Made by a program: the position numbers and the translations under genes. A stretch of 29,365 nt of DNA, from IMG/VR virus record IMGVR_UViG_2693429774_000014. One strand, 5' to 3'. Source of the DNA: a virus. Lineage: Duplodnaviria > Heunggongvirae > Uroviricota > Caudoviricetes. Position 1 is the stretch's first letter. The number at the start of each line of letters is the position of its first letter. Below are positions 14,108 to 15,253 of this stretch, one piece after another. The notes under the pieces were generated by a model. That model did not search any database. It worked only from the letters and a program-made list of their open reading frames with translations, and had not been told where the DNA came from.

Positions 14108-14793
14108 ATAACCAGTATTTACAGTTTGTGCGTGAGCAGCTCATTATCGCCACCGCTGATTTGAGTGGGGCAACAAAAGGTCAGCTTGAAGCCTGGCAGG
14201 AGAATGCCATGTTCGATACAGGGCGTTACAGGCGTAAAAAAATCCGGTACCGCGATGAAGTGACTGGAAAAATGATAACGCGGGATAATCCACCAATCCC
14301 GGGAAAGCAATCGCTGGCGAAGGGGACGTCAATTCCTCTGGTCAGTCCGATTGAGTTTTCGACATCATCGTGGCGGCGGGCTGTTCTGTCTCTTGAAGAA
14401 CATCATAAAGCCTGGTTGTTGTGGTGTTACAGCGGGAGTATTTGTTGGGAATATCAGATCGCGATAACACAGTGGGCGTGGAATGAATTTAATACTCAAT
14501 CCGGTACCAGAAAAATTGCAGGGAAAACGCAGGAACGCCTGAAAAAATTAATCTGGCTGGCGGCGCAGGCAGTAAAAGCAGAACTTTTTGGTGGGGAAGG
14601 TTATGAATACAAGGAGCTGGCATTACTGGTGGGAGTGACAACTAAAAACTGGTCCAAAACATTTACTCGTCACTGGGTTGCAATGAAACACATTTTTCAC
14701 CGACTGGATAGTGAGGCTTTATTGTTTGTAATGAGAACGCGTTCAAAACAAAAGGCGGCATTTTCAAAGCAAAGTGTTGCAAAAGTAGATTGA
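14104..14793 (+). CDS. Late-gene antiterminator Q-like protein (229 aa from the ATG overlapping the rusA stop; a GTG at 14098 is the alternative)
   Basis: ATGA overlap with rusA. Position immediately upstream of a PR'-like promoter, a short-transcript terminator and a tRNA cluster, the typical Q context in Stx-type lambdoid phages. Family call is by position and size. Confidence 0.7.
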   Translation: MNNQYLQFVREQLIIATADLSGATKGQLEAWQENAMFDTGRYRRKKIRYRDEVTGKMITRDNPPIPGKQSLAKGTSIPLVSPIEFSTSSWRRAVLSLEEHHKAWLLWCYSGSICWEYQIAITQWAWNEFNTQSGTRKIAGKTQERLKKLIWLAAQAVKAELFGGEGYEYKELALLVGVTTKNWSKTFTRHWVAMKHIFHRLDSEALLFVMRTRSKQKAAFSKQSVAKVD

Positions 14794-14805
14794 AAGGCAT
14801 ATATT
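14777..14805 (+). promoter_or_regulatory. Candidate late promoter PR' (-35 TTGCAA, 17-bp spacer, -10 TATATT) overlapping the 3' end of Q
   Basis: Near-consensus sigma-70 hexamers with 17-bp spacing, about 50 bp upstream of an intrinsic terminator; this is the lambdoid PR'-tR' arrangement. Confidence 0.45.
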
Positions 14806-14856
14806 TCATGCAAATCTGATATTTTGCCGATTTTGTACGTGATGGCAAAAGCAAAC

Positions 14857-14883
14857 AAAACCCGCCCACAAGCGGGTTTTTTT
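14857..14883 (+). terminator. Rho-independent terminator (tR'-like) downstream of Q
   Basis: Hairpin CCCGC-CCACAA-GCGGG followed by TTTTTTT. Confidence 0.7.
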
Positions 14884-14965
14884 GTGCCACTTATCTCGGA
14901 TAGACATGGTGAATGCGCTGGTGGAGGAAGCAAGGGTAATTTTTAACCAGGTGATTCTTGAATGC

Positions 14966-14994
14966 TTGCAACATTGATTTCGTAACGTTATTAT
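14966..14994 (+). promoter_or_regulatory. Strong sigma-70-like promoter (-35 TTGCAA, 17-bp spacer, -10 TATTAT) directly upstream of the tRNA cluster
   Basis: Hexamers and spacing read directly; the -10 ends about 9 nt before the first tRNA 5' end. Confidence 0.5.
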
Positions 14995-15003
14995 CCTGCG
15001 CCC

Positions 15004-15079
15004 GGCCCTTTAGCTCAGTGGTGAGAGCGAGCGACTCATAATCGCCAGGCCGCTGGTTCAAATCCAGCAAGGGCCACCA
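15004..15079 (+). tRNA. ileZ: tRNA with CAU anticodon (tRNA-Ile2, lysidine-type, or tRNA-Met), 3' CCA encoded
   Basis: Acceptor stem GGCCCTT/AAGGGCC pairs fully. D-arm AGCTCAGTGG. Anticodon loop CTCATAA (CAT at 15037-15039). T-arm GGTTCAAATCC. Same position as ileZ in Stx-type phages. Confidence 0.85.
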
Positions 15080-15086
15080 TCACATA

Positions 15087-15163
15087 CCGCCATTAGCTCA
15101 TCGGGATAGAACGCCAGCCTTCGAAGCTGGTTTCGCGGGGTTCGAGTCTCCGATGGCGGTCCA
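15087..15163 (+). tRNA. argN: tRNA-Arg (anticodon UCG), 3' CCA encoded
   Basis: Acceptor stem CCGCCAT/ATGGCGG. Anticodon stem CCAGC/GCTGG with loop CTTCGAA. T-arm GGTTCGAGTCC. Confidence 0.8.
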
Positions 15164-15176
15164 TTATCGGTATTCT

Positions 15177-15253
15177 GCGTTTTTAGCTCAGCCGGACAGA
15201 GCAATTGCCTTCTAAGCAATCGGTCACTGGTTCGAACCCAGTACAACGCACCA
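15177..15253 (+). tRNA. argO: tRNA-Arg (anticodon UCU; reads rare AGA/AGG codons), 3' CCA encoded
   Basis: Acceptor stem GCGTTTT/ACAACGC (one mismatch). Anticodon stem ATTGC/GCAAT with loop CTTCTAA. T-arm GGTTCGAACCC. Confidence 0.8.

Follow-up and report, generated by a model that had tools for sequence, protein, structure and literature searches.

At and beyond the 3' end of the antiterminator gene Q, the window (the whole 29,365-nt stretch of viral DNA analysed here) carries two candidate promoters, a terminator between them and a cluster of three tRNA genes. This arrangement raises two questions: what kind of late-gene switch it represents, and whether the tRNAs can be expressed independently of Q. 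The limits originally drawn around the region, 14777–15253, run exactly from the first -35 hexamer through the end of the third tRNA.

Bases 14700–15400 are 100% identical to many E. coli O157:H7 chromosomes, where PGAP annotates Q, a tRNA-Ile gene and two tRNA-Arg genes. Strain Sakai has this region in prophage Sp14, where a TciA/TerB-like gene, ECs_2748 and the esterase gene ECs_2746 come after the tRNAs; in strain TR01 the prophage adjoins mtfA and a tRNA-Ser gene. Q is preceded by RusA and a DUF968 gene, genes for a P21-type holin and for a NanS-p-like SASA esterase with DUF1737 lie farther downstream, and no stx genes are present in this prophage. The region very probably represents the late-gene switch of a lambdoid prophage that is of the Sakai Sp14 type and is integrated at serU; directly behind the switch sits a tRNA ‘moron’. 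As such it is an ordinary, already annotated and already known late-gene control region of a lambda-like O157:H7 prophage, to which the present analysis adds that Q and its late promoter PR' are of the phage 82 type, that the tRNA promoter belongs to a mobile cassette, and that the short RNA predicted from PR' is a homologue of IsrJ and is not HnrS. The presence, identity and conservation of all of these elements can be read directly from the DNA and its relatives. For the activity of these particular promoter, terminator and tRNA copies we argue from homologues, in which the phage 82 pause and Q mechanism (PMC4914094, PMC5001585) and the start of the tRNA promoter in prophage Sp5 (Sy et al.) have been demonstrated. 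At the same time, since Sp14 is defective, with an IS insertion in Sakai and TR01 and a nonsense codon in the window's terB-like ORF, the late switch may now be irrelevant to phage production.

Q, its late promoter and the terminator behind it

The Q gene (14098–14793, plus strand, with its stop codon at 14791–14793) encodes a 231-aa protein that matches PF06323 (E = 9.8e-93) and is annotated as Q in both TR01 and Sakai (ECs_2750). Its product shares 76.5% amino-acid identity with the Q protein of phage 82 (X92588) and 73.4% with that of phage 434, whose record calls its own Q ‘Q82-like’. A sequence search of solved structures returned no match to those of Q-lambda or Q21 and no Q82-family structure, the sole hit being a spurious weak one to a Ply protein (E = 0.005). 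Judged by these identities, Q is of the phage 82 type, unlike that of most Stx2 phages, which is of the 933W or 21 type.

PR' (14777–14805, plus strand) overlaps the 3' end of Q and consists of a -35 hexamer TTGCAA at 14777–14782, a 17-bp spacer and a -10 hexamer TATATT at 14800–14805. The original prediction described this site and the one in front of the tRNAs as two near-consensus promoters less than 200 bp apart; the TTGCAA hexamer and the 17-bp spacing are indeed found at both, but ‘near-consensus’ overstates the match, which in our consensus scan amounts to 9 of 12 positions for each. Because the scan returned eight such sites over 3 kb, where shuffled sequences gave 2.8 ± 1.6, the hexamers alone are weak evidence, and the significance of the two promoters comes from their conservation and from published data.

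For PR' the published data are detailed. In phage 82, a Q-binding element lies between -35 and -10 and a native pause occurs at +25 (Wells et al. 2016, PMC4914094), and the pause signal combines an extended -10 motif with a -10-like element; after it come a GCC discriminator at +15 to +17, an AT-rich stretch and a U at +25, with pausing at +25/+26 (Bird et al. 2016, PMC5001585). As the phage 82 record X92588 stops where Q ends, our comparison was made with this published description and with phage 434. Aligning the window's GCC to +15 to +17 of the 82 promoter gave an inferred +1 at 14812, seven nt past the -10. With this start, a predicted sigma-70-dependent pause element occupies 14817–14828 (TG at +6/+7, TATTTT at +9 to +14 and GCC at +15 to +17, plus strand), followed by GATTTTG at +18 to +24 and a T at +25, with the predicted pause at 14836–14837 (+25/+26), so that all of the features described for phage 82 fall in register. 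The PR'-like promoter proposed to follow Q thus matches the dissected phage 82 promoter feature by feature.

Phage 434, Salmonella ZC-S1_prp, Salmonella SW-37 (in its isrJ region) and Klebsiella 2b all show conservation of the -35, spacer and -10. In 434, ZC-S1_prp and Klebsiella 2b, whose Q proteins are 61–73% identical to that of the window, conservation takes in the -35 TTGCAAAA, most of the spacer, the -10 CATATAyTTCAT and the pause-element sequence TTTGrTAT. The spacer itself is partly conserved (AAnnnGATTrAAAG) and sits where the Q-binding element of phage 82 lies. Altogether, the window resembles the late region of phages 82 and 434 in its related Q, in a promoter overlapping the end of Q, in the pause element with GCC at +15 to +17 and U at +25, and in a terminator about 70 nt past the Q stop, and on these alignments the first promoter is a phage-82-type PR' that reproduces the published anatomy. 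On the minus strand, a CII-box-like site TTGCAACACTTTGC (TTGYN6TTGY; 14769–14782), read from the sequence, overlaps the palindromic -35; the record of phage 434 marks its counterpart there as a CII binding site and the -35 of paQ, making the window's copy a possible relic of paQ.

The tR'-like terminator (14857–14883, plus strand) was expected between the two promoters, and a GC-rich hairpin (14857–14880, core CCCGC/GCGGG) followed by seven Ts is found there, the T-run being 14877–14883 if only the core stem is counted. The terminator scan lists this hairpin on the minus strand only, because its longest stem takes up part of the T-run. From its sequence, the hairpin can terminate in both directions, since it is flanked by an A-run on its 5' side as well as by the T-run. 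Phage 434 has a curated terminator annotated at the equivalent place, 49–74 nt past its Q stop, and among relatives the terminator stems differ in sequence with their pairing kept.

Taken together with the phage 82 work, these elements suggest the following sequence of events. RNA polymerase would start constitutively at PR', with +1 near 14812, and would pause near +25 through renewed binding of sigma-70 to the extended -10-like element TGaTATTTT-GCC. If Q is absent, transcription would terminate at tR' near 14883, and the product would be an RNA of about 72 nt with two hairpins. Once the prophage is induced, the 82-type Q would bind between -35 and -10 and load onto the paused polymerase, and the Q-loaded polymerase would then pass tR' and later terminators, transcribing the tRNAs, the tciA/terB-like and DUF3927 genes and the NanS-p-like esterase gene before reaching the lysis and morphogenesis genes.

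The tRNA cassette and its own promoter

ARAGORN calls three tRNAs, and no others, in the whole window, with the anticodons CAU, UCG and UCU, all at the positions proposed from the sequence, and the Rfam tRNA model agrees (72.5, 44.4 and 63.3 bits, respectively, against a gathering score of 29). They are ileZ (tRNA-Ile2, 15004–15079), argN (tRNA-Arg, 15087–15163) and argO (tRNA-Arg, 15177–15253), all on the plus strand and named ileZ7, argN5 and argO7 in Sakai Sp14. The CAU tRNA, labelled tRNA-Ile by PGAP, is identical to E. coli K-12 ileX at 67 of 76 bases (88%), with C6-G67 replaced by U6-A67, a compensatory change, and C4-G69 and C5-G68 kept; on the strength of this identity it is an isoleucine tRNA-Ile2 and not a methionine tRNA, and is expected to read AUA after lysidine modification. 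The argN tRNA has C1-G72, U73 and a single D-stem mismatch, C11-A24, while argO has a single acceptor-stem mismatch, U6-C67, and is identical to K-12 argU at 54 of 77 bases. The former would read CGA and CGG and the latter AGA and AGG; we know of no counterpart of the UCG anticodon in the K-12 tRNA set.

Stx2 phages (933W, Sp5, 2851 and WGPS6) carry the same three tRNAs in the same order, about 91–93% identical to those of the window, with an identical promoter block upstream and at a similar site, between tR' and the moron or lysis genes; homology to these phages starts near 14931. The window differs from them in having tciA/terB-like and DUF3927 genes downstream in place of stx, in its 82-type Q (that of 2851 and WGPS6 is a 162-aa protein) and in a few allele-specific bases (among them T6 and A73 in argO and A24 in argN), including the two stem mismatches. 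The comparison with Stx-converting and related lambdoid phages that was first drawn from the layout of Q, a short terminated transcript and tRNA-Ile2/Arg/Arg is supported; it needs refining as to the type of Q, and as to stx, which is absent. Put differently, the Q / tR' / tRNA architecture of Stx phages also occurs in non-toxigenic prophages of O157:H7, here behind an 82-type Q. The ileZ-argN-argO cluster was reportedly first described, in 933W, by Plunkett and colleagues in 1999, and a search of a limited collection of papers found no functional work on ileZ, argN or argO.

In the cassette alignment the argN C11-A24 and argO U6-C67 mismatches are absent from the Stx2-phage copies, so the window's alleles may be less efficient than those copies. 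One could go further and see the tRNA genes here as decaying relics of a defective prophage that yield little functional tRNA: apart from the two mismatches, argN has the lowest Rfam score of the three, the adjacent terB-like ORF is interrupted by a nonsense codon, and Sakai has up to seven such cassettes by its own numbering, which would make each copy redundant. We consider such decay improbable, as all three tRNAs still form canonical cloverleaves with an encoded CCA in the drawn secondary structures, 326 E. coli records are at least 99% identical over the 701 bp from 14700 to 15400, cassette included, and the differences between ileZ and ileX include a compensatory pair.

The promoter of the cassette (14965–14997, plus strand) has its -35 TTGCAA at 14966–14971, a 17-bp spacer, its -10 TATTAT at 14989–14994 and a GC-rich discriminator, which is typical of stable-RNA promoters. 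The 5' end of mature ileZ lies 10 nt past the -10, and K-12 ileX has the same geometry. An alignment of five loci (the window, PPompW, Stx2a_WGPS6, phage 2851 and phage Evi) showed a 33-bp block, CTTGCAACATTGATTTCGTAACGTTATTATCCT, to be invariant in all of them, while the flanks upstream of the block diverge. Three types of Q precede these cassettes, namely the 82 type in the window and PPompW, the 162-aa type in 2851 and WGPS6, and a 273-aa type in Evi. Since the promoter block is the same behind all three, the alignment indicates that the second promoter travels with the tRNAs and is part of a mobile cassette. In Sp5, an Stx2 phage, a primary start site has been mapped by dRNA-seq for the promoter between tR' and stx2AB (Sy et al.).

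These observations bear on whether the tRNAs might be made solely from the Q-antiterminated late transcript, with the second promoter an inactive consensus match. A score of 9 out of 12 would allow for this, such matches being common in this AT-rich region (8 in 3 kb, 2.8 expected); however, both hexamers and the spacer are invariant in five loci with differing upstream sequences and Q genes, the block is suitably spaced from the 5' end of the mature tRNA, with the -10-to-tRNA geometry of K-12 ileX, and the corresponding promoter in Sp5 has a mapped primary start, all of which makes exclusive dependence on Q very unlikely. The original suggestion that the tRNAs can be expressed independently of Q is accordingly well supported by homology, and we take it as a reasonable reading because the block is invariant whatever the type of Q and because of the Sp5 start site (Sy et al.), the Sp5 copy being the one whose activity has been reported. 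Under Q-independent expression, the second sigma-70 promoter (14966–14994) would start 2–3 nt upstream of ileZ and transcribe ileZ-argN-argO in the lysogen. On the Sakai chromosome (NC_002695.2, minus strand), this predicted start corresponds to about 2,698,145, the predicted PR' start to about 2,698,334 and the predicted 3' end at tR' to about 2,698,262. The cassette would then be a self-promoted mobile module that recombines behind different antiterminators.

Cargo of the moron and a possible role in codon supply

The rest of the moron unit (15427–16247, plus strand) was delimited from the terminator scan, Rfam and the TR01 and Sakai annotations. It comprises the tciA/terB-like ORF, which in the window allele has an amber stop at 15559–15561, a DUF3927 ORF (15852–16019), an STnc100-like RNA found with Rfam (16024–16196) and the next strong terminator (16221–16239 plus an eight-T run), all on the plus strand. 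As the scan found no plus-strand terminator between the tRNAs and 16221, transcripts from the tRNA promoter probably extend across the terB-like ORF, the DUF3927 ORF and the STnc100-like RNA as far as the terminator at 16221–16247. With a promoter of its own, cargo and this terminator, the whole insert is a classic ‘moron’.

RNase P and the 3' processing enzymes would free the tRNAs from such transcripts, allowing them to read AUA, CGA/CGG and AGA/AGG, which E. coli uses rarely and which are commoner in the prophage. Counted over 18 orientation-consistent ORFs of the window (4876 codons), the frequencies per 1000 codons are 8.6 for ATA, 6.8 for AGA, 5.3 for AGG, 4.7 for CGA and 11.3 for CGG. 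The K-12 genome averages are, roughly, 4–5, 2, 1–1.5, 3.5 and 5.5 per 1000, respectively, and relative to these figures the window frequencies are roughly 1.3 to 4 times as high. This excess is consistent with the usual codon-supply rationale, without proving a benefit of the tRNAs. It is plausible, as originally proposed, that tRNAs for rare codons affect host translation, and several constitutively expressed decoders of AUA, AGA/AGG and CGA/CGG could boost the translation of horizontally acquired genes, which would be the translational benefit of the cassette.

The short RNA between PR' and tR'

The predicted PR'-tR' transcript, of about 72 nt (14812–14884, plus strand, from the start at 14812), folds into two hairpins (-22 kcal/mol, z = -3.07). 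Searched against Rfam, 14809–14882 gives full-length matches below threshold to isrJ (24.5 bits) and isrK (22.7 bits); the isrJ match has an E value of 0.077, with the whole length of the model aligned, against a gathering score of 37. A stronger isrJ locus (RF01393; 101.7 bits) is present in Salmonella SW-37, whose Q is 68.8% identical to that of the window. The region upstream of isrJ in SW-37 aligns with the window's PR' over the -35, spacer, -10, AAATCTGATAT and GCC, and the two loci share the RNA 5' end, AAAUCUGAUAU...GCC, which is followed in SW-37 too by a hairpin, CAAACAAA and a terminator. In Gifsy-1 and SW-37, an isrK-orf45-anrP module lies between Q and isrJ, whereas the window RNA comes directly after Q. 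Because of the alignment with the window's PR', IsrJ seems to be what Gifsy-like prophages have as their Q82-type PR'-tR' transcript, and the short RNA of the window is a diverged IsrJ homologue, placed directly after Q and below the level of Rfam membership. Compared with phage 434 and ZC-S1, the window RNA is about 19 nt longer, the extra nucleotides forming its first hairpin (14822–14850), and the tRNA cassette that follows it in the window is absent from 434.

Segments matching the 95 bp from 14796 to 14890 occur in 1105 of 5426 complete E. coli genomes, 961 of which hold at least 80% of the stretch. Most of the O157:H7 genomes among those listed have two copies of it, and 39 of the 40 matches listed have no annotated feature there; RefSeq leaves this IsrJ homologue unannotated. 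There are no EcOnc entries at the Sakai position of the short RNA, which means little because that screen excluded peaks within 100 nt of annotated features. StxS (EcOnc15) of Stx1 and Stx2a phages is comparable in principle, being a constitutive PR' transcript halted at tR', and it accumulates in lysogens; it differs in its length (258 nt, processed to 74 nt) and in the type of its Q and PR'. By analogy with StxS in Stx phages and with IsrJ and IsrK, which are reported to act in this way in Salmonella, the PR'-tR' RNA of Q82-type prophages might be a constitutive trans-acting regulatory RNA in lysogens, beyond being a by-product of antitermination, a role that we regard as possible but rather doubtful and that is the remaining loose end of this locus. 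If the RNA is regulatory, its lineage-specific first hairpin and A-rich linker are candidate functional parts.

One published prophage sRNA, HnrS (EcOnc10/11/12), is 66 nt long, has three copies in Sakai and represses hha (PMC13502914). The short RNA is of similar size, has two copies in most of the listed O157:H7 genomes and, of 31 terminator-like sites compared across the window, is the one predicted to pair best with the initiation region of hha, but its identity with HnrS can be rejected on both coordinates and sequence with near certainty: the EcOnc10/11/12 Hfq peaks belong to Sp12, Sp10 and Sp9, where they fall in the interval from Rz to the small-terminase gene and on the opposite strand to the late genes, and the window is Sp14; at that Sp9/Sp10/Sp12 locus, a unit running some 66 nt from promoter to terminator carries CUUCUACC, a perfect complement of hha GGUAGAAG; and a search of the window for the terminator of this unit, allowing up to three mismatches, found nothing, HnrS itself thus being absent from it. 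The duplex energies do not discriminate between candidates, as U-tails pair with purine-rich ribosome-binding regions and many unrelated segments gave energies better than -20 kcal/mol. Complementarity to hha also occurs on the minus strand near 21055, at a site that lies downstream of its nearest terminator, and is probably a chance match. The HnrS unit maps about 130 nt away from its published coordinates, which matches the shift between genome versions.

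tRNA cargo and a probable inserted module around PR'

The position behind PR', the late promoter overlapping the end of the phage-82-type Q (Q82-type), is one at which tRNA cargo is recurrently gathered, across different hosts. PPompW and phage Evi have ileZ-argN-argO-type cassettes whose middle tRNA (locus L001, 3967-4042, and L012, 1723-1799, respectively) bears the anticodon UUU and is classed as tRNA-Lys. The body of this tRNA is clearly homologous to argN, and its anticodon stem carries a compensatory G-C to A-T change alongside UUU, which, judging from the sequences, looks like a switch of anticodon inside the cassette from an argN-type tRNA to UUU. 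Klebsiella phage 2b carries two tRNA-Asn genes (L008, 2094-2165 and 2989-3063) downstream of its Q82-type PR'.

Salmonella phage SW-37 (L007, 1911-2819) has two RNAs in the stretch that separates its Q82-type Q from the isrJ/PR'-like site: a C4 antisense RNA (61.9 bits) and an isrK-like RNA whose 46.2 bits fall just short of the gathering score (50). A Gifsy-type isrK-orf45-anrP module therefore appears to have been inserted between this Q and its PR' site.

The minus strand of the window at 14769-14782 reads TTGCAACACTTTGC, a CII-box-like sequence that conforms to TTGYN6TTGY, the CII box of lambda, and shares bases with the palindromic -35 of PR'. For phage 434, the record labels the counterpart of this sequence a CII site and the paQ -35. 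In the TR01 copy of the prophage (from an O157:H7 strain used for comparison), a YdaT-family gene adjoins cro, and by analogy with that copy the CII-box-like site in the window may be a relic.

Small RNAs of the window and the probable location of HnrS in Sakai

Downstream of the moron ORFs, an STnc100-family RNA (Rfam, 100.8 bits against a gathering score of 47) and a strong terminator (16221-16239, followed by eight T) occupy window 16024-16247 on the plus strand. The RNA and its terminator, about 224 nt in total, agree in size with the Hfq-bound RNAs EcOnc04 and EcOnc05 of about 222 nt from Sakai Sp11 and Sp4, the listing of which gives ECs2746 as a homologous site. Convergent sRNA pairs have been placed in the interval that separates the moron from the esterase gene (Tree et al. 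2014), which is also where the STnc100 RNA of the window lies, and phage 434 and Klebsiella phage 2b have STnc100 matches at the equivalent position.

HnrS, a published prophage sRNA, is absent from the window as the unit found at the Sakai locus (L013). There, an RNA of about 66 nt is predicted from TTGAAA-18-AAAAAT, which resembles a promoter, and from a terminator whose stem ACTGCTGTG/CACGGCAGT is followed by seven T; this RNA contains CUUCUACC, complementary to the hha RBS. The exact site of HnrS is probably L013 ~1572-1637 on the plus strand (Sakai NC_002695.2 ~2,234,371-2,234,436), about 130 nt away from the 2014 coordinates, which is consistent with a change of genome version.

Two further RNAs were found in the window: DicF in the early-left region (4403-4454, minus strand; 76.7 bits), for which the Hfq peak EcOnc23 of Sakai Sp14 has the expected strand and approximately the expected distance, and the sok antitoxin RNA (11534-11708, plus strand; 114 bits), accompanied by a Hok/Gef-like ORF at 11646-11858.

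Differences from TR01 and Sakai Sp14

The tciA/terB-like ORF (window 15427-15855, plus strand) is interrupted by a stop at 15559-15561, where codon 45, GAG in the intact TR01 gene, has become TAG. Across the 1087 otherwise identical bases compared, the window and TR01 differ by two more substitutions, one of them AAA to AGA, and by T8 versus T7 in the terminator that lies downstream. Sakai Sp14 and TR01 both have an IS629/IS1203 insertion between the esterase and holin genes, whereas the window has none there (~18185-18630); because of this, and because indels also separate its early region from that of TR01, the window comes from a strain other than Sakai or TR01.
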